Shown here in pieces: positions 3,261 through 63,883 of a DNA stretch of 64,000 bases (position 1 is its first letter; the number at the start of each line of letters is the position of its first letter). Below the pieces are notes generated by a model that saw only the letters and a list, made by a program, of their open reading frames with translations, was not told where the DNA came from and ran no database searches. The DNA lies in contig CAJBEU010000001.1 of assembly GCA_903952265.1 (NCBI GenBank), positions 51,992-115,991 on the forward strand, read 5' to 3'. Source of the DNA: an uncultured Rickettsiales bacterium. Lineage in GTDB: Bacteria; Pseudomonadota; Alphaproteobacteria; Rickettsiales; Rickettsiaceae. The position numbers were made by a program, and so were the translations under genes.

Positions 3261-5003
3261 ATGTCTGACTCGCGTTCTATTGCATCTCCTTCTGCTTCTT
3301 ATTCTACTAAAGCAAATGGGCAAAATTTATTTCAGCAGCATTTGCTTGAGGTAAAGAAAGCTCTTTTGATTGTTTTTGGATTTTCCTTTTGTGTGAATTT
3401 GCTTGGGCTAATAACTCCTTTATACTCTTTGCAAATTTTAGATAGGGTTTTGGGTAGCGGCAATTTACAGACTTTGCTGATGCTTAGCCTTATTATGGGG
3501 TTGATACACTTTGTCATAGGGCTGCTACAGATTGCTAGGTCTTTTACTCTAATTAAGATTGGCAATTGGTTAGACAGCAACATCTCTCATCTTCTATTTC
3601 GTAGAGTCGTTTCTAATGCTGCAATTAACAAAACGATGGCTGGAGGCCAAATTTTAAGGGATTTTCAAGTGGTTAAAATGTTTTTAACTAGTGTAGGAAT
3701 AAATACTATATTTGACGCTCCTTGGACGATTGCTTATCTTATTGCTCTTTATCTTATTCATCCCTACATGTGTGTAATAGCTGTGGTTGGTGCTATTCTC
3801 ATAGTGAGTTTTGCCTTTTTCAACGCTTTTGCGACAAAATCTATTCTACAAAAATCTACTGAAAATTCTAATAAGAGTGTCAACAATTTAGAAATGGCTA
3901 CTCGTAATGCAGAAGTCATAGAGTCTATGGGGATGATGACAAATGTAGCCTCTGTTTGGAGAAAATATCAAATGCAAGCTTTGGACACTCAGTGTGTTGC
4001 AAGTTATAGGAACGGAATTATTTCAAATATTTCTGGATTCATTCGTAGTGCAATTCAGATGGCAGTTACTGCATTTGCGGCTTTTGTTATCGTTAGAACA
4101 CAAAGCGTTGATATGACGACGGGAGGAATGATAGCAAGCTCAATTTTGGTGGGTAAGGCTTTAGCTCCATTTAATAACTTCATTGGATTGTGGCAAAATA
4201 TTAATGATGCAATAAAAGCTTATGGCAGGGTAAATGCTGTACTAGATGCTCCAGACCTTAGGGACTTAGCAATGCCAATCGCAGTAGATCAAGGTGTTTT
4301 AATTGCTGAAAAGGTCTTTTTTTATTATCCGTCTGTTGGTGCTGCAAAGTACACACTACAGGACGTATCTTTTATAGTAGAGCCAGGTGAAATTTTAGCT
4401 ATCATCGGATCGAGTGCTAGCGGTAAGTCTACTATGGCTAAATTGTTAACTGGGATTTGGAAACCAGCTTATGGCACGATACGTGTGGATGGCTTGGAGG
4501 TATATAAGTGGCATAGAGAGACTTTTGGGTCACGCATTGGATATTTGCCTCAAGATGTAGAGCTTTTTAGTGGAACAGTATCAGAGAATATAGCTCGTAT
4601 GAGTACAGAATTTAATCCAGAGGATGTGATAAATGCGGCAAAGTCAGCTGGAGCACACGAATTAATTTCACGTTTGCAAGACGGGTATGACACAGACGTT
4701 GGTATTGGCGGCTCTAAATTGTCTGGAGGCCAAAGGCAACGCATAGCCTTAGCTCGTGCGTTTTATGGTAATCCCAAACTTTTAGTGCTGGATGAGCCAA
4801 ACGCAAATCTTGATACAGAAGGAGAAGAGGCTCTTGCAAGAGCCTTAGTGAAAGCTAAAGAGTTCAATATATCTTCAATATTTGTGTCTCATAGGTCATC
4901 TATATTGTCCATAGCTGACAAAATACTTGTTCTAAATTCGGGAATTGTTACCGCTTATGGCCCTGCTCAAGATGTTTTGGCAAGCATGGTGAGTGAAAAT
5001 TGA
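3261..5003 (+). CDS. Type I secretion system ABC transporter (permease + ATPase), PrtD/AprD-type
   Basis: N-terminal multi-TM domain plus an ABC ATPase. Walker A GSSASGKST, signature LSGGQRQRIALARA, Walker B LLVLDEP. No N-terminal C39 peptidase domain. Followed by an HlyD-family gene. ORF track starts at TTG 3243; first ATG is at 3261. Confidence 0.85.
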   Translation: MSDSRSIASPSASYSTKANGQNLFQQHLLEVKKALLIVFGFSFCVNLLGLITPLYSLQILDRVLGSGNLQTLLMLSLIMGLIHFVIGLLQIARSFTLIKIGNWLDSNISHLLFRRVVSNAAINKTMAGGQILRDFQVVKMFLTSVGINTIFDAPWTIAYLIALYLIHPYMCVIAVVGAILIVSFAFFNAFATKSILQKSTENSNKSVNNLEMATRNAEVIESMGMMTNVASVWRKYQMQALDTQCVASYRNGIISNISGFIRSAIQMAVTAFAAFVIVRTQSVDMTTGGMIASSILVGKALAPFNNFIGLWQNINDAIKAYGRVNAVLDAPDLRDLAMPIAVDQGVLIAEKVFFYYPSVGAAKYTLQDVSFIVEPGEILAIIGSSASGKSTMAKLLTGIWKPAYGTIRVDGLEVYKWHRETFGSRIGYLPQDVELFSGTVSENIARMSTEFNPEDVINAAKSAGAHELISRLQDGYDTDVGIGGSKLSGGQRQRIALARAFYGNPKLLVLDEPNANLDTEGEEALARALVKAKEFNISSIFVSHRSSILSIADKILVLNSGIVTAYGPAQDVLASMVSEN

Positions 5004-5024
5004 GATAAATAAAAAACTAATTGT

Positions 5025-6524
5025 ATGACAGATAAAAGTCAGGATTTTAGAAGCCATGGTGCTTTACATAGCGGCATCATAGAAGAAAAAATCATCAAGA
5101 GAACTTTTTGGAAAGGTTATAGCAAAACCTTTGTGACCAAAGTATTAGAGATTTTTCAGGGTCTTCTTGTTTTTGTGGATCAGTTTGTAGATTTTATAAT
5201 TAATCGCAACGTTTCAAGGCTCAATGATGTGGTTGTTTATGCAAGACCTCCAATACTGTTTGGTTTGTACGTAATCTTTATTTTTATCATATGTGGAGGA
5301 TATTGGGCTGTTTTTGCACCTCTTGATAGCGCTGCTCATGCTAATGGTGTTGTTATTGCTACTGTGGATAAACAACGTATTCATCACGTGCAAGGAGGTA
5401 AGGTAAGAAAGATCTTTGTAAAGCAAGGGGACATAGTAAATGAAGGTCAAGTGTTGATGGAACTATGTTCTCCAGAAGCTAGGGCCAATTATGAAATCTA
5501 CTTAAATAATTATTTAGACGTTCTTGCTTGTCAAAACAGGCTTGTTGCTCAAAGAGATGGTGCGGCTCAGATAGCCTTTGATGAAATGCTGGTTAAAAAT
5601 AGCAAGCAGGAGAGAATCGAAAAACTACTCTCTATTCAAAATAAAATTTTTCGTGAGATGCAAGACTCTCATAAAAATAAAATCAATTTGCACCAGCAAG
5701 AAATACAAAAATGCATTCAAAAACGTGACTCCTTAAATGCTCAAATAGAATATGCTAAAGAAAATTTTAAGTTTGTTACTGAGCAACTAAAGGTGAGTTT
5801 GCAGCTGGAAAAAGATGGTTTTGCTTCCAGATCCGACTCTGAAAAATTGCTTTCCGAACAAGCAAGGGGCAAATCTATTCTTGCGGATAATCTTGCTAAT
5901 CAAGCCAACTTAGAAAAGGAAATTTTGTGTCTTGAGATCAAAATTCAGGAAGAGCACAACAATAGGTTTCACTCGATATTAAGAGAGCTAAAGGAGACTC
6001 AAAGTAAATTATCCGAGGTTAAAGAGCAGTATAACAGAGTGAAAGAAACTTTTGATTCTCAAATTATAGTATCACCGATGCGAGGTGTTGTGACTTACCT
6101 AGTGAGAAAGTCTCTGATTCACCCTCAGTCTGAGATTGGTGGAGTTACTCCAATAAGGAGTCATTTGGTTGTAGAAGCTAAAGTTTCACCTCAAGACATT
6201 GGTTCTGTGCGCGTGGGGCAGCAATGTAAGGTAAAATTTACAGCTTTTAAATCAAGAACTTCTCCTTTATTTAATGGTGTAGTGACTTCTATTTCTCCAG
6301 ATACTATGGAAGAGATTGGTCCTAGAGGAGAAAGAGCGCAATTATACGTTGCAAGATTGGAGATGGATAAAAAAGAGTTGGATGAATTCTTAGAGCCTCG
6401 TGGTATGGAACTAATTCCAGGAATGCAGGCATCTGTAAACATTGTTACCGGTACCAGAAGTTTATTTAGGTACTTGATGGATCCTGTGTTAGATCAGACG
6501 TTTAAAGCATTTAAGGAAAGATAG
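5025..6524 (+). CDS. Type I secretion membrane fusion protein (HlyD/PrtE/AprE family)
   Basis: One N-terminal TM helix, a long coiled-coil middle and a C-terminal beta region ending TGTRSLFRYLMDPV, as in HlyD-family adaptors. Lies 21 nt after the ABC gene. Confidence 0.85.
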   Translation: MTDKSQDFRSHGALHSGIIEEKIIKRTFWKGYSKTFVTKVLEIFQGLLVFVDQFVDFIINRNVSRLNDVVVYARPPILFGLYVIFIFIICGGYWAVFAPLDSAAHANGVVIATVDKQRIHHVQGGKVRKIFVKQGDIVNEGQVLMELCSPEARANYEIYLNNYLDVLACQNRLVAQRDGAAQIAFDEMLVKNSKQERIEKLLSIQNKIFREMQDSHKNKINLHQQEIQKCIQKRDSLNAQIEYAKENFKFVTEQLKVSLQLEKDGFASRSDSEKLLSEQARGKSILADNLANQANLEKEILCLEIKIQEEHNNRFHSILRELKETQSKLSEVKEQYNRVKETFDSQIIVSPMRGVVTYLVRKSLIHPQSEIGGVTPIRSHLVVEAKVSPQDIGSVRVGQQCKVKFTAFKSRTSPLFNGVVTSISPDTMEEIGPRGERAQLYVARLEMDKKELDEFLEPRGMELIPGMQASVNIVTGTRSLFRYLMDPVLDQTFKAFKER

Positions 6525-10897: not shown

Positions 10898-12550
<1,653 letters not shown>

Positions 12551-30367: not shown

Positions 30368-31759
30368 ATGCTGAGGGAAGATAATAACGGTATAGTTCGT
30401 GATCATGAGTTAGATTTGCAAGAAGCAGAAAATGCTTCCGCTATTTCTGAAAATGATAATGATTTTGTTTTGAGAATTTTTGGTGGCAACAAAGTTTATT
30501 TAAATCAATTGAAAAGCAAGTCTCCGGAGGCTTTGCACGACATTGCAAAAGAGTGTGGACTAAAAAACTCTGGTAACATGCTAAAACAAGAACTTTTGTT
30601 TTCTATACTTAAGAAAGTTGCTGAGCACAGGGGTGAAATTGTAGGAGAGGGGCTTTTGGAGGTTCTTTCTGATGGTTTTGGATTTTTGAGATCTTCTAGC
30701 TCTAATTATCTCGCAGGTCCCGACGATATCTATGTTTCTCCAAATCAGATCCGCAGGTTTTCTCTGCGCACCGGAGATACAGTTGAAGGGGAAATTAGAG
30801 CGCCAAAAAACAATGCAGAAAGATATTTTGCATTAGCAAAAGTCAATACTGTAAACTATGCACCTTTGAGAGATGCGGCAAATCGCATTCACTTTGACAA
30901 TTTGACACCTCTTTTTCCTGAAGAAAAGTTACAGCTTGAGACTCCAAAGGCGGACGTACGAGATATGGGGGCTCGTGTAATAGATTTGGTAGCTCCTTTG
31001 GGTAAAGGGCAGAGAGGGCTTATTGTTGCTCCTCCTAGAACAGGAAAAACTGTATTGTTACAAAATATGGCTCACTCCATTTCTAAAAACCATCCAGAAG
31101 CAATTCTGATAGTACTTCTTATTGATGAAAGGCCCGAGGAAGTTACAGATATGCAAAGATCTGTAAAAGGGGAGGTTGTAAGTTCAACCTTTGACGAACC
31201 AGCAAGCCGTCACGTGCAGCTTGCAGAACTCGTGATCGAAAAGGCAAAGCGTCTGGTAGAGCATAAGAGAGATGTGATTATTTTGCTTGATTCTTTAACC
31301 CGTCTTGCAAGGGCTTACAATGCTGTGATGCCTTCCTCTGGAAAAGTTTTAACCGGAGGGGTGGACGCAAATGCATTACAAAGGCCTAAAAGATTCTTTG
31401 GAGCTGCTCGTAATGTCGAACATGGAAGTTCTTTGACAATAATTGCAACTGCCCTTATTGAAACAGGCTCCAGAATGGACGAAGTGATTTTTGAGGAATT
31501 TAAAGGAACAGGAAATTCTGAAATTGTTTTAGATAGACGCATTGCAGACAAGCGAACATATCCAGCAATCGACATAAATAAGTCAGGGACAAGAAGGGAG
31601 GAGCTTCTTGTGGATAGGGCAACTTTAAACAAAATGTGGATTTTGCGTAGAATTTTAGCGCCCATGAATACTTTAGAATCTATAGACTTTTTACTTACAA
31701 AGCTCAGGAGTACTAAAACCAACGTAGAATTTTTTGACTCAATGAATACTCATGCTTAA
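30368..31759 (+). CDS. rho: Transcription termination factor Rho
   Basis: RNA-binding GFGFLR and Walker A APPRTGKT. Has an N-terminal extension of about 40 aa relative to the E. coli length. Confidence 0.96.
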
Positions 31760-31818
31760 GGTTGATTTATTGAATGATTTTTACTACCATAGAGATACAA
31801 TAATTTGATACTTTAAAA

Positions 31819-32133
31819 ATGAATATTGGTAGCTGCTCGGCAGTAAGCAACTTACTTGTGGATCTTTGCTTTGCGTCTCGTAACGACTTGTCGAATTCCA
31901 AGGATAATGAAAAAGGTTTTAGTTTAAATCCTGTTTCTGCAAAGCAATTGGACGATTTTGCCTTGCGCGATTGTTTTAGCCGAGCTGTAAGCAAGGCATT
32001 TTTTTGTCTAGGAGACTCTGAACAAAGTTTGCAGCAGAGTATTTTTAGACGTTTTCAAGCTCACGTTTTTTTTGATGCCTTGATGCAAGATAAGAAAGAT
32101 AACAACTCAGGAGCGCTGTCTTTTTATGTCTAG
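31819..32133 (+). CDS. Hypothetical protein; possible FlgJ-type rod-binding domain protein
   Basis: 104 aa. AKQLDDFALRDCFSRAV ... GDSEQSLQQSIFRRFQAHVFFDAL loosely parallels the A-K-x-F-E-A-x-F-L-x-x-M-F motif of alphaproteobacterial rod-binding proteins, recalled from memory. Its stop overlaps the next ORF start. Confidence 0.4.
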   Translation: MNIGSCSAVSNLLVDLCFASRNDLSNSKDNEKGFSLNPVSAKQLDDFALRDCFSRAVSKAFFCLGDSEQSLQQSIFRRFQAHVFFDALMQDKKDNNSGALSFYV

Positions 32134-32524
32134 TGAAAATACCGACGTTGCTTTTTTAGATGATGCATGCAAAAAGCTCTTGACTGCTGTGGAAGATTTG
32201 ATAAATGCAACTGAAGATGCAAAAGAAGCCGTGCTTTTAAGCAAAGGAATTGAGGCTTGCTTTTTGCGCTCACAAGAGTGTGCGACAGCTGCGAAGTCAG
32301 CGTTTGAGTCTCTAGAAGGACAAAAGCTGTTTCCTGAAGGATTAAGCTCCATTATGAGGGAGAAAATTCAGGAGTCAGTAGAGCGGTGGCATGCTGTTAT
32401 GCAAGATTTTGCTTTTCTTGCAAAGTCTCAAATGGACAAGGCTGAAAATGCGATTTACAATTCCCAAAATGTGCAGGGTCCTTCGAGTGAAGGTCCTGGT
32501 GTTGTTTTGAACGATTCGGTATAG
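32126..32524 (+). CDS. Hypothetical acidic, helix-rich protein; possible FlgN-like export chaperone
   Basis: 132 aa, with no recognisable catalytic motif. Its size, charge and position immediately upstream of the FlgK-like ORF fit FlgN/FlaN. Start overlaps the upstream stop (ATGTCTAG). Confidence 0.35.
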   Translation: MSSENTDVAFLDDACKKLLTAVEDLINATEDAKEAVLLSKGIEACFLRSQECATAAKSAFESLEGQKLFPEGLSSIMREKIQESVERWHAVMQDFAFLAKSQMDKAENAIYNSQNVQGPSSEGPGVVLNDSV

Positions 32525-32527
32525 AAA

Positions 32528-32539
32528 AAGGAGGTGATC
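32528..32539 (+). promoter_or_regulatory. Extended Shine-Dalgarno AAGGAGGTGATC before the 470-aa ORF
   Basis: A 12-nt stretch that would pair perfectly with the canonical 16S rRNA 3' tail (GATCACCTCCTT). The GGAGG core ends 7 nt before ATG 32542. Confidence 0.6.
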
Positions 32540-32541
32540 TC

Positions 32542-33954
32542 ATGAGCACTCAAATTGGGGGTCTTGGGCTTTTTAACGTTGAACGTGAGATGAAGCTTTT
32601 GCTTCAAAGATCTCAAGATTCTTCTAGGGCTGGCGTGCCTTTGCGCACAGTTTATGAATCTGTGGCTGTCTCGGGCAATCTTTATAACCTGAAACAAGGC
32701 CTTTCTTGTGATGTTGCGTTAAGCATTCCAAAGCAATTATGTGATGCTACTAGCAGGGCTAGTGATGCTCAAATTCTGGACGAGTATTCATCAAGAATTC
32801 ATGCAGCCCTTGTTGAGCAAGATGGTAGATATTCTATTCTTAAAAAGATGGAAGAGTTTTGTCAGATGGGGAAAGCTGGTCCTGCTAATTCTGCCAATCA
32901 GTGCTCTGAAAAAACTATGGATACTCTCCAGGATTTGACAAATAAATTTAACGAGTCCTACAAATTTCTCTCGGATCTGCAAGTTCAGGTCTTTGAGTCC
33001 ATAAAGGTAGAAATTGAGTCTGTTAACAAATCAATTACCGGTCTCTTTGGGCAATATGAGGACATGAAGAAATCCAGTCACTCTAACAGAGCTTTGATGA
33101 CGGGAAGGTACTATGATGGCTTACTTGAGCTTTCTGAAAGCATCGGAATTGAAATTCCTTTAAGTGGAATTGAGGATGGCGACATGCCTTCCAAGGTTTC
33201 AGTAAAAGCGCCAGGGCGCGTTTTAGAAGATGTACTCAAGTCTAAGTTAGTTCTTGGAGTCGAACTTGTGGATCCTAACGAGTGTCTGGATGCTATCCAG
33301 ATTTTAATAAAAAATTACGACTCTTCTGACTCTGGATCTGAAAAAATTGATGGTATTTTATACGCTGATCTTTCTAAGGAACCCAGTTCAGATAAAGACT
33401 TTATTGATGGAAAGATAACTACTAATGTAGGCGAAAAAACTCTTTTGGTGGTTGATTCTTCTAAAGCTCAGGCGCAGGGAAAGCTTGGCGCTTTGCTAAG
33501 GCTCTATACAAATGTCATTCCGAGGCAACAGTGGCGTTTGCATAAACTTGGAGGGATAGTGTTGAAGAATGCTGTTGTGGATTTTAAGGACGGAAAGGTT
33601 AGCGTTAGAAACGGGCTTGATGTTGCTAAAATCTTTGATACTTTGCCTAGCATTGTCAATTTTACTAGTAATGCTAAATCACAGTCAGCGATAGACCTCG
33701 CCATTGATAGTTTTACAAAAAATCTGAGTGAAATTTCAGAAATGCGTAGGTCCTTTATTGAAGGGAAGAAGGTTGCTGAGGATTTGTTAGAGCGCGCTCA
33801 ATCTGAGAGAGAGAATTTTGTAAAGATTAGCCAAAACGAATACATGGAGCGTATGCGGGAGCTCAATATGCAAAAAGAACTATTGATGAGAATTTTGGAT
33901 ACAATGATGAATTTTTATAAAAGCGTTGCCAAACTTGGGTCGTCCGTAGGCTAA
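32542..33954 (+). CDS. Hypothetical protein; putative highly diverged flagellar hook-associated protein 1 (FlgK-like)
   Basis: 470 aa with helical termini and a beta-rich middle. GKLGALLRLYTNVIPRQQWRLHKLGGIV resembles the FlgK GxLGGLLxFRxxxLDxxRNxLxQLA motif. N-terminal SQDSSRAGVPLRT compares with SxNIAxxxxPGYxR, and C-terminal NEYMERMRELNMQKELLMRILDTMMN compares with the FlgK DEE..NL..FQ..Y....+.I...DEMLDTL tail. All comparisons are from memory. Confidence 0.5.
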   Translation: MSTQIGGLGLFNVEREMKLLLQRSQDSSRAGVPLRTVYESVAVSGNLYNLKQGLSCDVALSIPKQLCDATSRASDAQILDEYSSRIHAALVEQDGRYSILKKMEEFCQMGKAGPANSANQCSEKTMDTLQDLTNKFNESYKFLSDLQVQVFESIKVEIESVNKSITGLFGQYEDMKKSSHSNRALMTGRYYDGLLELSESIGIEIPLSGIEDGDMPSKVSVKAPGRVLEDVLKSKLVLGVELVDPNECLDAIQILIKNYDSSDSGSEKIDGILYADLSKEPSSDKDFIDGKITTNVGEKTLLVVDSSKAQAQGKLGALLRLYTNVIPRQQWRLHKLGGIVLKNAVVDFKDGKVSVRNGLDVAKIFDTLPSIVNFTSNAKSQSAIDLAIDSFTKNLSEISEMRRSFIEGKKVAEDLLERAQSERENFVKISQNEYMERMRELNMQKELLMRILDTMMNFYKSVAKLGSSVG

Positions 33955-33976
33955 TAATTAATAATAATAAATTTAA

Positions 33977-34798
33977 ATGGGGCGATATTATATGCGAATT
34001 CCATCAATGACGAGCATACCACATGGGTCTGCTTCGATTATGCATCTTAGAAAGCTTGAAAATGGATATGCCAGAGCTTTGGATAGATCTAAAGAAAATG
34101 AGGATATTGTGCATCTTGAAGAGATGTCTCACAGCGAGCGCATGGAGTTTCTAAAACACGACGGTGCCTTAAGACAATTGCAGCAAGATAATGAGCGTGC
34201 TGACTTTGCTAAAGTAGAAGTTACAAGGGTTCTCGACAGAGTCAGATCAATTCGTAAAGACATGCAAAGTCTCTATAATTTAGAACTGAAGATAGATAAA
34301 TGCACCGATCCTGTAAGGCTTTTGGCTATGAATTATGCTTTCCAAAAACAGCAGCTAGCCCTACAGGATAAGATTTTCGATCTTGCTGATTCCTTAAAGT
34401 CCAGTGATTTTTATGATGGATCTCTCATAGCCATTGAGATTAGGCCTGGGTATACTGTCAATAGTTCGTCAGAGGGCTCGACCTTAGAAGTGCTACAGTT
34501 CGTGGGACTCAATGTTGTGGGGCCGGGCTTTTCTTTTAGCAACAGAATTAAGTACTTAGACCTGATTCTTATCCCTCACTTAAGTCAAGATATGGAAACT
34601 TGTGATAGGGCTCGAGAGGTGATTGATGCAGAGATAAAAATGCATAAATCTATAATTTCTAAATTGCACGTAAGTCAGGACAATAGGAAATTACAGCGGG
34701 CTGATGCTAAGAATAGGCTAGATAGCTTTCTTATGTTTCTTTGGGATCAGATGAGATGGTCCAGAGATATGATGAAGATGATGCAGGGAATGTCATAA
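33977..34798 (+). CDS. Hypothetical protein; putative highly diverged flagellar hook-associated protein 3 (FlgL/flagellin-family-like)
   Basis: An internal ATG at 33992 gives an MRIPSMTS start, like the MRI(S/T) start of FlgL/flagellins. Helical N-terminal region with a VLDRVRSIRKDMQSLYN segment. The C-terminus MMQGMS resembles the enterobacterial FlgL tail DMQGMS. Follows the FlgK-like ORF as in flgK-flgL pairs. Confidence 0.45.
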   Translation: MGRYYMRIPSMTSIPHGSASIMHLRKLENGYARALDRSKENEDIVHLEEMSHSERMEFLKHDGALRQLQQDNERADFAKVEVTRVLDRVRSIRKDMQSLYNLELKIDKCTDPVRLLAMNYAFQKQQLALQDKIFDLADSLKSSDFYDGSLIAIEIRPGYTVNSSSEGSTLEVLQFVGLNVVGPGFSFSNRIKYLDLILIPHLSQDMETCDRAREVIDAEIKMHKSIISKLHVSQDNRKLQRADAKNRLDSFLMFLWDQMRWSRDMMKMMQGMS

Positions 34799-34825
34799 TT
34801 TTATTAACTTCGTGAATATGTTTTT

Positions 34826-35149
34826 ATGTTTGCTATAATTAAAACTGGCGGAAAGCAGTATAAGGTGGAGCCCGGGAGCGTCTTGCAGGTTGAAAAACTT
34901 GATTTTCCGACCGGTTCCCACAACCAGATCAATGACGTCTTGTTGCTATCGAACAACCTTGCACTATCTGTTGGAGCTCCTTTTGTGGAGGGTGCGTCTG
35001 TTATGATAGAGGTAGTTGAACATTTGCGAGAAGATAAAATTATTGTTTTCAAGAAAAAGCAAAGAGCAAACTACCGAAGAAAGCACGGGCACAAGCAGCT
35101 TAAGACAAAAATCAGAATTTTGGACATAGTGTGCCAGGGTTCTGTATAA
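34826..35149 (+). CDS. rplU: 50S ribosomal protein L21
   Basis: MFAIIKTGGKQYKV N-terminus; 107 aa. Confidence 0.95.
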   Translation: MFAIIKTGGKQYKVEPGSVLQVEKLDFPTGSHNQINDVLLLSNNLALSVGAPFVEGASVMIEVVEHLREDKIIVFKKKQRANYRRKHGHKQLKTKIRILDIVCQGSV

Positions 35150-35182
35150 ATAGGCGTTATTTTATTTAAATATTGTTGAAAT

Positions 35183-35446
35183 ATGGCTACCAAAAAATCT
35201 GGAGGCACCTCCAGTAATGGAAGGGATTCTGCTGGTCGTAGACTTGGAGTAAAATGTTCAGATGGACAGTTCGTACCTGCTGGGAGCATCATAGTGCGTC
35301 AGAGGGGGACCAAATTTCTTTCTGGGTCTGGTGTGGGCTTAGGGCGGGATCATACAATCTTTGCAAAGCAGCCCGGAGTGGTGAAATTTCTTAGAACCGT
35401 GAGAAACAGGGTCTCTATTTCTGTTATTGAATTAAGTGTTCTGTAG
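35183..35446 (+). CDS. rpmA: 50S ribosomal protein L27
   Basis: [24 protein letters not shown]; 87 aa. Confidence 0.95.
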
Positions 35447-35648: not shown

Positions 35649-35684
35649 AAAAAAGGGAGCTTTTCTGTTGCTTGGCAAGCCCCC
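35649..35684 (-). terminator. Rho-independent terminator ending the tmRNA coding piece
   Basis: Minus strand GGGGGCUU-(14 nt loop)-AAGCUCCC followed by UUUUUU. Confidence 0.6.
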
Positions 35685-35930
35685 ACAGCCACCGGTGGTT
35701 AGCAGCACTTAAGCTGCTAGAGCCATCCTTTTGTTGTTGTCGTTTCCGTTTAAGAAACTTGATCTTTATTTTGGAAAACCAAAACAGGTGATCATTCCTG
35801 AGCAAAAGTCACTCCTTTATTCAGCATGTCGATCCTAATTCATCCCCATTTGGTGGAGATGCCGGGTACTGCCCCCGGGTCCATTACTGCTATTTCAAAT
35901 GCCATTTATTGCCATAGCTTTGCAGCAATA
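35649..35930 (-). ncRNA. ssrA: Circularly permuted (two-piece) tmRNA gene: acceptor piece about 35851-35926, 3-nt spacer, coding piece 35847-35649
   Basis: On the minus strand, ...GGAC-CCGGG-GGCAGUA-CCCGG-CAUCUCC-ACCA (CCA at 35851-35853) is followed by AAU. Then comes GGGGAUGAAUUAGGAUCGAC, resembling the canonical tmRNA 5' end GGGGCUGAUUCUGGAUUCGAC. GGGGAUG pairs with CAUCUCC, giving the G3:U70 alanine identity pair. Tag frame ..AAC GAC AAC AAC AAA AGG AUG GCU CUA GCA GCU UAA (..NDNNKRMALAA*, stop at 35709-35711), with the stop inside an AGCAGC-UUAAGU-GCUGCU hairpin. The 5' boundary is guessed from a TTGCTA-N17-TAAAGT promoter-like element. Confidence 0.8.
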
Positions 35931-36082
35931 CGACTTTATTACCTATTTTGGTTGATAGCAAGGGGTAGTTTTTATTTAGATTTGATTGACCAGCATACAG
36001 GGATTTTATCCTTTAGCTACTTTTGGATTATTTGTTATTTTTGTTATATCATTACTTTTCTTAATTAAATTTTACTTTTACT

Positions 36083-41490: not shown

Positions 41491-43047
41491 TTAGTGTTTT
41501 GCTATTGCTTTGTTGTATTCCTTACCAAGGTGATGTACCGCGTAGTACCAAACCAAACAAGTCATGATGAATACAGTCATCAAGTAAGTGCCTATTGAAC
41601 CATAGGTCGCTGAAGGTATTATAATGAAAGCTCCAGCTTGTAAAAGGGATCCTAAGGATTTACCTAGCTTGCTTCCGATGACTTCTGTACAGGCTTTTCC
41701 TTGTGTTTTTAGCTCTGAATCCAGAGGTACATATAGCATTTCTTTTGTGGCATCAAAAAGAGTGTATTTTGTAGATTTAATTATAATATTTTGTGCTGTT
41801 CCGGCAATTAAAGCCACTAAAGCTGGTTGTATAGAAAGAATTGCTGCTATGCCTGATTCAATTACCGAGAAATTGGTAGATGTAAAAAATATTAATCCAG
41901 AAATCAGAGTACATAGCGGAGGAATTGTTGCTCCTACTGTCCAACCAAATCTTCGTATAATTTGGGAGCCTAGTAAGACGCATAGCAAAGTTACTATACC
42001 GCTGCATTTTAGAGTAAATCCCGTAAAAGCCATGTTTAATTCTGGCATACGGTAAAGTAGCCTCATTTTCTCTCTCCATACTAAATCTATTGTGCTGATC
42101 GCAGTACCGTAGGAAATCAATAACAGCCCTATGAGTCTTACATATCGAGACTTTGCTACTATTTTGATACTATCAGAGAGTTTTTGATTTCGTTTTACTA
42201 GTAATGAGGCCTGAGTGATTATGTTTTTATCTATTATGAAGTGATTTAGTATCCAAAAGAGAGCTATGATCAATATGCCTAAAATAGACATAATAGATAG
42301 AGTGATTTGCACACATAGTACAGTTCTGGGAGTGCTTAGATTAAGCAAATCAGTTAGCGTAGAGGCTATATTTGTTATGTTTGCAAGTAATATTCCTGAG
42401 ACAAAAAGGCCTGTTTGTCCAAGCAGACCAAAGAGTATGTAAAATCTCTTAGATTCAGAAACTGATGTTACAGAATTTATGAACTGCCAAAACAATAGAG
42501 CAAAAACTACGTTGGACCACATTTCGGCTATTACGTATAGCAGAGCACAATCCCAATTTTTCAGGATGAGCATGAACCATTTAAGATGTGGCCACTGAGT
42601 ACCAATTTGCAGCAAGATTGCGGATGAGTCACTCATTCCTCTGTTTGGAAAAAGTAAAAAAGCAAAGGCCATAAAGAAGAAGACGAAAAATCCTACAACT
42701 GCATAGAATATGTATTCAGTCTTTACGTGTTTTATTATTTTTACGTAAGCAATGCTTACCAGTATCGCTAAAGGCAATACGCACCATATCTTTAGTATCG
42801 AAATTACTTCTGTGGCCACCAGAGTTGTGATAAGAGAGTCCTTTAGGGCCTTGGCTATATTCTGCACAGAAAGAATGCAAAAGAGCAAAGCTGTGATTGT
42901 GCAGAACCTCGGAAGTTCAGATTTGCGTATTGGAAATACTATCTCTAGAAATCGTTCCCAGGTCTGGTTTAGCGAGTTAAAAAACAGGAGTCTCGCACTC
43001 TTTGCGAGAGTGGGTACAAGCATTATTTTTTTTGTAGAAAACTGCAT
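41491..43047 (-). CDS. tlc: ATP/ADP translocase (Tlc/NTT nucleotide transporter family)
   Basis: 518 aa, about 12 TM helices. LKDSLITT..EVISILKIW.VLP, WQFINSVTSVSESKRFYILFGLL and KYTLFDATKEMLYVPLDSELKTQGKACTEVIGSKLGKS closely parallel Rickettsia Tlc1 as I remember it. Confidence 0.93.
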   Translation of the reverse strand: MQFSTKKIMLVPTLAKSARLLFFNSLNQTWERFLEIVFPIRKSELPRFCTITALLFCILSVQNIAKALKDSLITTLVATEVISILKIWCVLPLAILVSIAYVKIIKHVKTEYIFYAVVGFFVFFFMAFAFLLFPNRGMSDSSAILLQIGTQWPHLKWFMLILKNWDCALLYVIAEMWSNVVFALLFWQFINSVTSVSESKRFYILFGLLGQTGLFVSGILLANITNIASTLTDLLNLSTPRTVLCVQITLSIMSILGILIIALFWILNHFIIDKNIITQASLLVKRNQKLSDSIKIVAKSRYVRLIGLLLISYGTAISTIDLVWREKMRLLYRMPELNMAFTGFTLKCSGIVTLLCVLLGSQIIRRFGWTVGATIPPLCTLISGLIFFTSTNFSVIESGIAAILSIQPALVALIAGTAQNIIIKSTKYTLFDATKEMLYVPLDSELKTQGKACTEVIGSKLGKSLGSLLQAGAFIIIPSATYGSIGTYLMTVFIMTCLVWYYAVHHLGKEYNKAIAKH

Positions 43048-62863: not shown

Positions 62864-63883
62864 ATGATTCGGTCTTTAGAGCTGATGGCAAGCTTTCACA
62901 GAATGTGTGAATGCGATACTTGGGATGAGATCGTGAAGATCACGGGTAAGACTAGGGAGAGTGTTGCATTGGAGCTTGGAGAGCTTGAACTTGTGTTGGG
63001 AAAGAAGCTGATTCATAGGCATCCTGAGGGAAGTGTTGCAAGTAGCTTTAGCGGCAGATTCTTCATGCCAACAGATGCCGGAATGAAGTGGTATCTGCTG
63101 ATTGGGGAGATGCTTAAGAACCTTGCACCTGGGGATTATTCTACCGAAAGTGCTTTTTTCCACATCATGAACGACTCCTTAGGGCTAGCTGGCAACAAAT
63201 TGCTAGACGTCACTGGATCTGTTGTAACTTTTTCATTTTTTTCCTTTGGTCATATGCAAAATATGAGGATCTTCACTAACAGTTTTTTGTCATTTTATTG
63301 CATAGAATCAGTTCTTGCTCAGTTATTGTATAAGTATAAAGGCCTGCTTTTTTCGACCTTTGGAGATGAAGAAAGGCATTCGGAGGATTTCGATGTCTAT
63401 TTTCTTCCATACCATTTTCCTAAGGAAGATTTTATAGCAGAGACTTTTGCTGAGGGGAAGACTTTTCTATACGCTCATCCTTCTTACATAGAAACTGCTG
63501 GTGCTCCTAAAAAACTCGCAGACCTACGTGATCACCTTTTGATACGTTCCAAAGACTCGACTTCTGCGCGTGCAATTGGAGTAGAAAAGTTTGGGACGAT
63601 TAGAGATTATCTACCTACGCTACATCATAAAAGATTCATTGAAGTTGCAAGCTTTAATTCTTTGCTTAATCTCGTAAAAATGGGTTCTGGTATTGTTGCA
63701 CTTACTGACCTTACCCATCGGATCACTCAGGCCAACTTACAAAAAATTGCCCCGCTTGAAGAGGAGCAAGAATTTGTATATCGAAATTTTACTTTTGGTT
63801 TTCATCAAAAACACAAGTCTAATCCCGTTGTACAAGACCTGGAAAAGGGTTTGCGCACAATATTCTCCAACTTTAATCAGTAG
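62864..63883 (+). CDS. LysR-family-like transcriptional regulator (atypical, long)
   Basis: N-terminal winged-HTH pattern LELMASFHRMCECDTWDEIVKITGKTRESVALELGELELVLGKKLIHR, followed by a substrate-binding-like domain of about 250 aa. Track TTG start is 62858; ATG is 62864. Confidence 0.65.
   Translation: MIRSLELMASFHRMCECDTWDEIVKITGKTRESVALELGELELVLGKKLIHRHPEGSVASSFSGRFFMPTDAGMKWYLLIGEMLKNLAPGDYSTESAFFHIMNDSLGLAGNKLLDVTGSVVTFSFFSFGHMQNMRIFTNSFLSFYCIESVLAQLLYKYKGLLFSTFGDEERHSEDFDVYFLPYHFPKEDFIAETFAEGKTFLYAHPSYIETAGAPKKLADLRDHLLIRSKDSTSARAIGVEKFGTIRDYLPTLHHKRFIEVASFNSLLNLVKMGSGIVALTDLTHRITQANLQKIAPLEEEQEFVYRNFTFGFHQKHKSNPVVQDLEKGLRTIFSNFNQ

Follow-up and report, generated by a model that had tools for sequence, protein, structure and literature searches.

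A highly diverged FlgK homolog in a conserved four-gene block between rho and rplU of uncultured Rickettsiales-like alphaproteobacteria

The junction between the flagellar hook and filament of Salmonella consists of two layers made of 11 copies of FlgK and 11 copies of FlgL (PMC12221982). FlgN, the export chaperone specific for FlgK and FlgL, delivers its substrates to FlhA (PMC8527033). FlgN varies strongly in its primary sequence, and the criteria for its identification include gene position and protein length; in Bacillus subtilis the gene belongs to the flgM-flgN-flgK-flgL operon (PMC4054197). Among aquatic Rickettsiaceae, Midichloriaceae and basal Rickettsiales families, flagellar genes occur commonly, the sets being patchy across the order, and a flagellum serving host-to-host transmission was proposed for aquatic Rickettsiales (PMC10847448). 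Partial flagellar sets in endosymbionts are also known from Buchnera and from a placozoan Midichloriaceae symbiont (PMC6879607).

Here we describe four unannotated, tightly coupled genes, ORF1 to ORF4, located between rho and rplU in a 64-kb stretch of DNA, the whole of which is hereafter called the window. The best explanation of this block, to which we assign a probability of about 0.58, is that it is an operon for the hook-filament junction (flgK-flgL), extremely diverged and passed on vertically, with two small accessory genes upstream, and that it is fixed at this site in a clade of uncultured Rickettsiales-like alphaproteobacteria that live in fresh water and carry TLC. The gene order, small-small-flgK-flgL, would be that of the B. 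subtilis operon; in contrast to the latter, ORF1 has no detectable sequence similarity to FlgM, and the block gives no sign of regulation by sigma-28 or FlgM. Similarly to the endosymbionts with partial sets, an intracellular genome-reduced lineage would keep some flagellar parts, with a possible function in secretion or transmission instead of constant motility. However, those endosymbionts keep the basal body and the export gate while their junction genes are reported missing, whereas here the junction genes are the ones seen.

Gene layout and conservation of the block

The host tmRNA is of the alpha type and thus assigns the DNA to an alphaproteobacterium; one of the relatives carrying the block is the freshwater 'MAG: Rickettsiales bacterium RE-15aug16-152'. 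As noted in the original prediction, the same DNA encodes a TLC ATP/ADP translocase (41491-43047, - strand; PF03219, E 6e-133), and the block is the only one in 64 kb lacking a housekeeping assignment, all other tested ORFs belonging to ordinary families. No other flagellar gene (export, rod, hook, motor or filament-cap) was found in the window, as predicted, or in the 10 kb beyond its right edge, so the 'orphan' status of the block applies to about 74 kb. Genes of these classes were not seen in the relatives' flanks of the block either. The GC content of the block is the same as that of its flanks, which makes a recent transfer unlikely.

The original prediction described four co-directional, tightly coupled ORFs of 104, 132, 470 and 273 aa, with an 8-nt overlap, gaps of 17 and 22 nt, and a 12-nt perfect Shine-Dalgarno sequence before ORF3. 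All of this is read directly in the sequence (Table 1) except for the ORF4 start and the gap before it. In all orthologs and in most public gene calls, ORF4 starts at the methionine of the MRIPSM motif, and the ORF3-ORF4 gap is therefore 37 nt, compared to 22 nt with the upstream ATG. The ORF1 stop and the ORF2 start overlap in ATGTCTAG. The Shine-Dalgarno sequence AAGGAGGTGATC is fully complementary to the canonical 3' end of 16S rRNA and occurs only once in the window; the chance expectation is 0.26 even with one mismatch allowed.

Table 1. Features of the rho-rpmA region in the window.
Feature	Coordinates	Strand	Description
rho	30368..31759	+	context; conserved upstream neighbour, ending 59 nt before ORF1
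ORF1	31819..32133	+	104 aa; small protein, no role assigned
ORF2	32126..32524	+	132 aa; acidic, small, helical by periodicity; candidate FlgN-type export chaperone
Shine-Dalgarno AAGGAGGTGATC	32528..32539	+	12 nt; the ORF3 ATG lies 7 nt after the GGAGG core
ORF3	32542..33954	+	470 aa; highly diverged FlgK (HAP1, hook-associated protein 1) homolog
ORF4	33992..34798	+	268 aa; predicted flagellin-superfamily D0-D1 fold
ORF4, longer version	33977..34798	+	273 aa; alternative upstream ATG at 33977
rplU (34826-35149) and rpmA (to 35446)	34826..35446	+	context; conserved downstream, starting 27 nt after ORF4

The order rho-(ORF1)-ORF2-ORF3-ORF4-rplU-rpmA is kept in all 11 relatives' loci, with Rho identity down to 75%; the exceptions are a fragmented ORF3 in one locus (L006) and two short contigs that end before ORF4 (L009 and L014). 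The four proteins are 41-64% identical in four close genomes. The 8-nt overlap is found in all seven loci that have ORF1, and a purine-rich Shine-Dalgarno sequence precedes ORF3 in most relatives. Intergenic gaps remain short: 7-20 nt between ORF2 and ORF3, 3-40 nt between ORF3 and ORF4 (one locus excepted), and 15-51 nt between ORF4 and rplU. The dN/dS ratio of the block is 0.19-0.35 in the L001/L003 pair, where dS is unsaturated (ORF1 0.35, ORF2 0.19); for rho and rpmA the window/L001 pair, with saturated dS, gives 0.03-0.06. Such conservation of the proteins and of their coupling, together with these dN/dS values, exceeds chance: the four genes are real, intact and translationally coupled, and evolve under purifying selection throughout the clade.

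On the + strand, the region spanning rho to rpmA showed no terminator-like site. Together with the housekeeping neighbourhood, this is unusual for late flagellar genes and counts against the reading of the block as a flagellar operon.

The FlgK homolog and the downstream flagellin-fold protein

The predicted FlgK-like nature of ORF3 was borne out by independent sequence tests with profiles and HMMs, and by a structural comparison using AF2 and Foldseek. ORF3 was compared with the FlgK profiles FlgK_D1 (PF22638) and TIGR02492 and with FlgK structures (PDB 2d4y, 9go6, 9u4r, 5xbj, 4ut1, 9gsx). The window protein has colinear matches to FlgK_D1 (E 2.9e-5, 24.2 bits, under the cut-off of 28.6 bits) and to TIGR02492 (E 1.4e-8, 34.5 bits, under the cut-off of 170.75 bits). 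The ORF3 family comprises ten proteins in 1.84 billion representatives, and one of them (P0011) exceeds the Pfam gathering score (38.1 vs 28.6 bits). The best four matches of the family profile among PDB sequences are all FlgK. When 53 E. coli proteins, flagellar ones and decoys, were scored with the family HMM, FlgK came first (19.4 bits; runner-up 3.6), and hhalign aligned family columns 83-215 with columns 92-223 of E. coli FlgK (E 0.002). For the AF2 model (pLDDT 72.5, pTM 0.73), the first 11 PDB matches in Foldseek are all FlgK (best E 2.6e-8, TM 0.64), whereas non-FlgK matches have TM below 0.2. We conclude that ORF3, which has the D0/D1/D2 layout of axial proteins, is a genuine, very diverged homolog of FlgK.

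ORF3 shares with FlgK the overall predicted fold, the colinear D1 helical domain, the long N- and C-terminal helices, a variable outer domain between conserved termini, and a flagellin-fold gene directly downstream. Conserved residues are concentrated at positions 1-80, 181-220 and 421-460, while region 221-400 contains up to 48% gaps; conserved termini and an indel-rich middle are the conservation pattern of an axial protein. In contrast to known FlgK proteins, ORF3 is about 10-15% identical to them in structural alignments, scores under the Pfam and TIGRFAM cut-offs, and is located between rho and rplU without flagellar neighbours. It is also shorter (470 aa vs 547 aa in E. coli), homologs ranging from 371 to 480 aa in the whole family and from 371 to 449 aa in the deep branches. 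The terminal motifs Flg_bb_rod and Flg_bbr_C were undetectable by profile search in every family member.

The AlphaFold model of ORF4, built from seven sequences, has a pLDDT of 78.1 and contains a four-helix D0-D1 core; of its outer domain, only a short loop and a beta segment (137-181) remain. The reference families were Flagellin_N (PF00669) and Flagellin_C (PF00700), with FlgL and flagellin structures in PDB 9go6 (chains L-V), 8uxk and 8cxm. The top 14 Foldseek matches are flagellin cores and the Salmonella FlgL chains of 9go6 (probability 1.00, TM 0.48-0.71) with modest E-values (2e-3 to 1e-2), whereas unrelated helical bundles have TM of about 0.2. The claim that ORF4 is FlgL-like is thus upheld by the predicted fold and not by sequence profiles, as Flagellin_N, Flagellin_C and FlgL profiles match none of the ten family members. 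The model supports assignment of ORF4 to the flagellin/FlgL superfamily by its D0-D1 core. This fold fits FlgL and a minimal flagellin alike, as does the size of 268 aa. The MRI N-terminus and the location downstream of flgK are further shared features; ORF4 directly follows the FlgK homolog in every locus reaching that far, and FlgL (HAP3) is the most likely identity of the modelled protein.

The profile results also have a bearing on the locus as a whole: the undetectable Flg_bb_rod, Flg_bbr_C, Flagellin_N and Flagellin_C motifs in all members count against a flagellar operon, as do the scores of the window ORF3 under the cut-offs and the very small size of the family.

The two small upstream genes

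In 11 of 11 loci, ORF2 immediately precedes the gene of the FlgK homolog. It encodes an acidic protein (15 kDa, pI 4.48; 106-132 aa across the loci) with amphipathic helical periodicity (z=3.1) and a single conserved break (Pro/Gly) around residue 70. By position, size (132 vs 138 aa), charge and periodicity, ORF2 is compatible with a FlgN-type chaperone (PF05130), as originally proposed; in contrast to FlgN itself, it has no detectable sequence similarity to this family. The FlgN profile matched none of the 11 members, and no match to FlgN, FliS or FliT was found in Pfam, NCBIfam, PDB sequences or by hhalign.

ORF1 is 41-55% identical in close relatives and 18-30% in distant ones; in the deepest branches (L010, L013, L014) it is either missing or beyond recognition. 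Its nine members have no Pfam or PDB match, and helical periodicity was not observed (z=0.7). The proposed similarity to the rod-binding domain of FlgJ was not supported, given this phyletic pattern, the lack of Rod-binding matches in all nine members and an hhalign probability of 0.2% against E. coli FlgJ. The hhalign comparison with E. coli FlgM was also negative. Among E. coli flagellar proteins, the family HMM scores FliS highest, but the 7 bits are marginal (E 0.03, 53-protein set) and lose significance after multiple testing. The hook-junction module as originally outlined is therefore retained for ORF3 and for the ORF4 fold, with ORF2 compatible and the FlgJ component unsupported; the outcome in which none of the four proteins has profile or structure similarity to flagellar proteins clearly does not apply.

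Alternative readings and possible role

A possible though unlikely alternative is exaptation of an orphan block: the export gate, rod, hook and motor would have been lost, and the FlgK-like/flagellin-like pair would survive with two small partners, repurposed without a flagellum. The proteins could assemble by themselves into a helical filament or a structure at a tip, or could be released by another route and interact with the host, being expressed together with the housekeeping rho-rplU-rpmA unit. This agrees with the lack of other flagellar genes in about 74 kb, with TLC as a mark of energy-parasitic intracellular life, with housekeeping neighbours just 15-59 nt away and no terminator-like site in between, with the undetectable terminal motifs, which mediate hook and filament contacts, with the shrinking of D2 in ORF3 homologs of the deep branches, and with the reported absence or rarity of flagella in several crown Rickettsiales groups (PMC10847448). 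However, about 74 kb provides little information on a genome whose size is likely above 1 Mb, and the retained chaperone-like gene and predicted D0-like terminal helices fit continued T3SS export and polymerisation. Three further considerations argue against exaptation. Bacterial flagellar genes are often scattered over the genome. To our knowledge, axial proteins are exported only by the flagellar T3SS. Finally, much faster evolution of FlgK than of Rho is the normal situation, and in this light the dN/dS values of the ORFs are not abnormal.

It is more doubtful that ORF4 is the filament protein, a minimal flagellin, accompanied by a FliS-like ORF1 and a FlgN-like ORF2. The best Foldseek E-values and TM for ORF4 belong to flagellin cores (8cvi, 8cxm, 9hpz, and Caulobacter FljL 8uxk with TM 0.71), FlgL chains being slightly lower (9go6_L, E 5e-3, TM 0.63), Caulobacter flagellins are of about the same size, and FliS is the best match of ORF1; but the flagellin-FlgL difference is within noise, the FliS match is not significant, and, as far as we know, flgL is almost universally the next gene after flgK.

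Decay of non-functional flagellar remnants into pseudogenes is very improbable and largely refuted: the extreme divergence from canonical families and the ORF3 of L006, broken into five pieces, would suit it, but frames, lengths, starts, overlaps and Shine-Dalgarno sequences are intact in 10 of 11 relatives' loci, dN/dS is well below 1, and the L006 frameshifts look like sequencing errors, since they also affect the essential rplU and tend to fall at homopolymers. Equally remote, and also largely refuted, is an unrelated coiled-coil system mimicking flagellar motifs, which would explain why no family gives a significant sequence match to ORF1, ORF2 or ORF4, but not why three independent sequence models and the full-length fold relate ORF3 to FlgK, or why the ORF4 model matches flagellin and FlgL only.

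If the block is a junction operon, ORF3 and ORF4 would, by analogy with Salmonella, leave the cell in unfolded form through a flagellar type III export gate whose genes lie in another part of the genome. They would then polymerise via the terminal helices, at the tip of an axial structure resembling a hook. ORF2 could be the cytoplasmic export chaperone delivering both proteins to FlhA, and ORF1 may be its lineage-restricted accessory or regulatory partner. The structure served might be a conditionally expressed flagellum for host-to-host transmission, or a reduced flagellum-derived export organelle. The block would represent the known flgK-flgL module in a very diverged form, and a lineage of energy parasites would retain parts of the flagellar hook junction that are invisible to routine annotation.

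Layout and conservation of the four-gene block

The four genes between rho and rplU were originally predicted to form a diverged flagellar module encoding, in this order, FlgJ-like, chaperone-like, FlgK-like and FlgL-like proteins. Re-reading of the sequence upheld most of the proposed layout. The genes are co-directional at the predicted coordinates, ORF1 and ORF2 overlap by 8 nt (ATGTCTAG), the gap between ORF2 and ORF3 is 17 nt, and the 12-nt Shine-Dalgarno sequence preceding ORF3 (AAGGAGGTGATC) occurs once in 64 kb, with a chance expectation of 0.26 even if one mismatch is allowed. The start of ORF4 and the gap before it were revised: a start reading MRIPSM is shared by the orthologs and by most public gene calls, and leaves 37 nt between ORF3 and ORF4. 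The GC content of ORF1–ORF4 (0.39–0.43) is like that of their surroundings. The GC skew is strongly positive (0.1–0.2) over roughly 1–50 kb of the window, where forward-strand genes dominate, and close to zero beyond ~50 kb, where the genes turn to the reverse strand.

Features of the window discussed in the text
Feature	Position	Strand	Remark
ABC exporter and HlyD-family protein genes	3261-6524	+	directly after rpoC
rho	30368-31759	+	upstream neighbour of the block
ORF1	31819-32133	+	104 aa
ORF2	32126-32524	+	132 aa
Shine-Dalgarno sequence of ORF3	32528-32539	+	AAGGAGGTGATC, 12 nt
ORF3	32542-33954	+	470 aa
ORF4	33977-34798	+	273 aa; ortholog-supported start 33992, 268 aa
rplU	34826-35149	+	downstream neighbour of the block
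tmRNA, two-piece (permuted)	35653-35965	-	directly 3' of rpmA
TLC ATP/ADP translocase gene	41491-43047	-	adjoins dnaX
LysR-MFS-LysR-MFS	62864-63883	+	continues beyond the right edge

The gene order rho-(ORF1)-ORF2-ORF3-ORF4-rplU-rpmA recurs in all 11 loci of relatives as far as the contigs reach; the exceptions are a fragmented ORF3 in one locus (L006) and two short contigs (L009, L014) that stop before ORF4. The 8-nt overlap of ORF1 and ORF2 is kept in each of the seven loci with ORF1. The gaps across relatives are 7–20 nt between ORF2 and ORF3, 3–40 nt between ORF3 and ORF4, and 15–51 nt between ORF4 and rplU. The only outlier is the locus of a named Rickettsiales MAG (L011), where 305 nt (11401–11707) part the ORF3 and ORF4 homologs; possible causes are a misplaced start, inserted sequence, or a frameshift in the N-terminal part of ORF4. 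Across the set, Rho is 94% down to 75% identical to its counterpart in the window, ORF3 63% down to 25%, and ORF4 57% down to 21%. FlgK usually evolves much faster than Rho.

The family is rare in public data. Among 5.8 billion proteins, a word-indexed search yielded three ORF3 homologs; when 1.84 billion cluster representatives were searched exhaustively with an HMM, ten ORF3 family proteins scored E<=1e-3, and three of these are fragments. All four proteins are hypothetical or nameless in the public sources (Pfam, NCBIfam and source names).

Similarity of the block proteins to flagellar proteins

Profile searches link ORF3 to FlgK. The FlgK_D1 domain (PF22638) matches ORF3 of the window with 24.2 bits (E 2.9e-5) and its relatives with 28.4, 27.3, 24.9 and 23.9 bits, at a gathering cut-off of 28.6; a distant member of the family (P0011) exceeds this cut-off with 38.1 bits over profile positions 11–208 of 233. 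The TIGR02492 model matches residues 64–166 of ORF3 at model positions 70–172 (34.5 bits, E 1.4e-8), and the relatives match colinearly with 31–44 bits, the E-values being 1e-7 to 1e-11 overall and 1e-10 to 1e-11 in the close relatives, all of which are colinear. All these scores are far below the flgK_ends equivalog cut-off of 170.75 bits. The N-terminal Flg_bb_rod (PF00460) and C-terminal Flg_bbr_C (PF06429) domains had no match at E<=1 in any of ten ORF3 family members.

Direct comparisons point in the same direction as the alignment becomes deeper. Searches of PDB sequences with the single ORF3 sequence and with a four-sequence profile gave nothing significant; with a ten-sequence family profile the best four matches were all FlgK, weakly (E 0.02–0.19). 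Similarly, hhalign of a shallow ORF3 alignment against the single E. coli FlgK sequence was not significant, and that of a deeper alignment gave an E-value of 0.002 over 126 colinear columns. Run on 53 E. coli proteins (flagellar, chemotaxis and decoy), the ORF3 family HMM gave FlgK 19.4 bits (E 1.5e-6), followed by FlgL (3.6 bits), FliC (2.6) and FlgE (-1.9). By sequence, FlgK is thus the nearest of the axial paralogs to ORF3, ahead of FlgB/C/E/F/G, FlgL, FliC and FliD. Its conservation profile is of the axial-protein type: residues 1–80, 181–220 and 421–460 are conserved, and 221–400 are indel-rich.

The AlphaFold2 model of ORF3 (pLDDT 72.5, pTM 0.73) has long terminal helices at residues 3–25 and 431–468, a helical core, and a beta-rich insert of low confidence. 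The best 11 Foldseek matches of this model in PDB are all FlgK, from Salmonella, Campylobacter and Burkholderia; the top one, 9u4r_CC, has an E-value of 2.6e-8, probability 1.00 and TMq 0.64, and the first non-FlgK match has a TM-score of 0.14. The model therefore has the FlgK fold, with D0/D1 helices and a beta-rich D2. With the FlgK_D1 and TIGR02492 matches (both below the curated cut-offs for the window protein), the family HMM and the 11 leading Foldseek matches in agreement, the predicted FlgK-like character of ORF3 is borne out, and ORF3 is a highly diverged FlgK homolog.

For ORF4, sequence methods altogether gave no link to any family. Flagellin_N (PF00669) and Flagellin_C (PF00700) had no match at E<=5 in any of ten family members in the Pfam and NCBIfam scans, searches of PDB sequences with the single sequence and with profiles (one of four sequences) were negative, and so was hhalign against E. 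coli FlgL with both the shallow and the deeper alignment. Axial termini common to ORF3 and ORF4 were sought by comparing the two family profiles with each other, with no significant result. The AlphaFold2 model of ORF4, built from seven sequences (pLDDT 78.1), consists of helices 11–33, 47–103, 107–136, 182–223 and 229–266 and a short intervening insert of loop and beta structure. Its top 14 Foldseek matches are all flagellin D0-D1 cores or FlgL chains of the Salmonella junction complex 9go6 (probability 1.00, TM 0.48–0.71, E 1.8e-3 to 1.4e-2); unrelated helical bundles reach a TM-score of about 0.2. The modelled ORF4 thus has the D0-D1 four-helix core of flagellin and FlgL.

ORF2 lies directly upstream of the FlgK homolog in all 11 loci, and its family members are 106–132 aa long. 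The protein is acidic (pI 4.48), and its helical amphipathic periodicity is above that of shuffled sequences (z=3.1, in a crude test); a single conserved Pro/Gly break lies at about residue 70. The FlgN family is highly variable and is recognised by position and length, among other criteria (PMC4054197); ORF2 agrees with FlgN in both. ORF2 is thus compatible with the proposed FlgN-like nature in position, size, charge and helical periodicity, but not in sequence: the FlgN profile (PF05130) had no match in Pfam and NCBIfam scans of 11 family members, the family HMM scored E. coli FlgN with 1.1 bits, and hhalign gave a probability of 0.1% in a weak test with this single sequence as the target. 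Likeness to FliS or FliT was not detectable.

The FlgJ-like reading of ORF1 is unsupported, since no similarity to FlgJ or its rod-binding domain was found. The Rod-binding profile (PF10135) matched none of nine family members, the ORF1 HMM scored FlgJ with -0.6 bits, and hhalign against E. coli FlgJ gave a probability of 0.2%, again a weak test with a single target; an equally weak comparison with the single E. coli FlgM was negative. The best E. coli flagellar match of the ORF1 family HMM is FliS, with a marginal 7 bits, and ORF1 has no helical periodicity. Scans of all ORF1, ORF2 and ORF4 family members against Pfam and NCBIfam produced only scattered coiled-coil noise. Of the four proteins, ORF1 shows the weakest conservation. 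Its range is limited to the shallower branches of the clade; in the deepest ones it is absent or cannot be recognised, and there the region between rho and ORF2 (L010, L013, L014) holds only a spacer of 160–345 nt or a 45-aa ORF without clear similarity. The order of the four genes is equally like that of the B. subtilis flgM-flgN-flgK-flgL operon (PMC4054197).

Host lineage, possible function and alternative readings

The taxonomic marker used for the window is a two-piece tmRNA of the alphaproteobacterial type (RF01849, 170.9 bits). The TLC ATP/ADP translocase named in the original prediction was confirmed (PF03219, E 6e-133). Its gene adjoins dnaX and is syntenic in a distant block-bearing relative (L013, 19158–20672, reverse strand), so this marker of energy parasitism is clade-wide. 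Lineages with TLC are described as the order's 'intracellular stage' (bioRxiv 10.1101/2023.01.31.526412), and flagellar genes are reported as common in aquatic Rickettsiaceae, Midichloriaceae and basal families of Rickettsiales (PMC10847448). The sole named relative with the block, found by a search with a 6-sequence alignment, is 'MAG: Rickettsiales bacterium RE-15aug16-152' from a freshwater reservoir; the remaining ones come from lake or other metagenomes and SRA assemblies. The window also encodes MipZ and a type I secretion-like pair of an ABC exporter (ABC_membrane and ABC_tran) and an HlyD-family membrane fusion protein, the remainder being ordinary housekeeping genes. The pair is possibly another export route in this genome; no connection of it with the block is drawn. 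At the right end of the window, a gene pair for a LysR-type regulator and an MFS transporter is duplicated in tandem, and the array continues in the adjoining sequence (L015, 10001–14677).

In Salmonella, the 11 protofilaments are continued between hook and filament by two layers, built of 11 FlgK and 11 FlgL subunits, with D0 lining the channel and D2 exposed (PMC12221982), and FlgN acts as a chaperone of both proteins, docking them on FlhA for export (PMC8527033). By homology, ORF3 and ORF4 would leave the cell through a flagellar type III gate, presumably encoded in another part of the genome, and would assemble into polymers at the end of a hook-like structure, and ORF2 may be their export chaperone.

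As originally stated, the window contains no further flagellar genes, and none was found in the 10 kb past its right edge or in the flanks of the relatives' loci; the ~74 kb formed by the window and these 10 kb thus show no flhA, flhB, fliPQR or flgE. The canonical terminal motifs of axial proteins are undetectable in the family members. The block sits among housekeeping genes: no intrinsic-terminator-like site was found on the forward strand from rho through rpmA (30368–35446), a promoter scan of this region gave matches at chance level, and the block may be co-transcribed with its neighbours. Only these three observations speak for a scenario in which this TLC-bearing clade lost the motor, rod, hook and export gate and has kept only the FlgK-like and flagellin-like pair, with two small partners, for a very long time in the rho-rplU-rpmA unit as a new, flagellum-independent structure for self-assembly or host interaction; we regard this scenario as rather unlikely, and favour a role of the pair at a hook-filament junction.

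The structural matches of ORF4 include both flagellin and FlgL, and the protein might be a minimal flagellin, which we consider quite improbable. An ORF4 homolog lies directly downstream of the ORF3 homolog in all nine loci reaching that far, and since the gene thus follows a flgK homolog, FlgL is the more parsimonious assignment. The FlgL-like reading of ORF4 therefore stands on fold and gene position, but gains nothing from any sequence profile.

That the genes are decaying relics is contradicted by their selection and by their conserved coupling. In the unsaturated L001/L003 pair of relatives (dS 0.24–0.44), dN/dS is 0.35 for ORF1, 0.19 for ORF2, 0.30 for ORF3 and 0.34 for ORF4, as compared with 0.03 for rho and 0.06 for rpmA in the window/L001 pair, whose dS is saturated (~1.2); therefore ORF1–ORF4 are under purifying selection, evolving several-fold faster than their neighbours. 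The one broken locus is L006 (8500–10600), where the ORF3 homolog is called in five fragments and ORF4 is truncated. infB and the essential rplU are disrupted there as well, with many indels at homopolymers. Sequencing error is probable, or as likely as pseudogenisation, which we reject as unproven because rplU is frameshifted too. An unrelated coiled-coil system merely mimicking flagellar motifs is contradicted by the FlgK matches of ORF3 in Foldseek and HMM comparisons and by the flagellin and FlgL matches of ORF4.

Implications for flagellar gene surveys

The block is an extremely diverged variant of a known module, unseen by routine annotation and limited to a small uncultured clade. Two of its four proteins are flagellar axial proteins, ORF4 by its predicted fold, despite being annotated as hypothetical or left nameless. 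Surveys of the presence and absence of flagellar genes in Rickettsiales and other endosymbionts depend on such annotation, and conclusions on repeated loss of flagella, on transmission strategies, and on what the ancestor of Rickettsiales and of mitochondria was like are drawn from them (PMC10847448, PMC6879607). One of them, based on KEGG and BLAST, reported flgK and flgL as missing in a gene set that was fairly complete in other respects (PMC6879607). Junction proteins can diverge past profile detection and yet stay under selection, and therefore some of the reported 'losses' may be false negatives. The compact family, with FlgK of 371–480 aa and FlgL or flagellin of ~270 aa, offers material on a minimal hook-filament junction. 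If these genomes lack the export apparatus, the block would be a rare case of axial proteins reused outside the flagellum, and only a loss of the rest of the flagellum would make it considerably more interesting.
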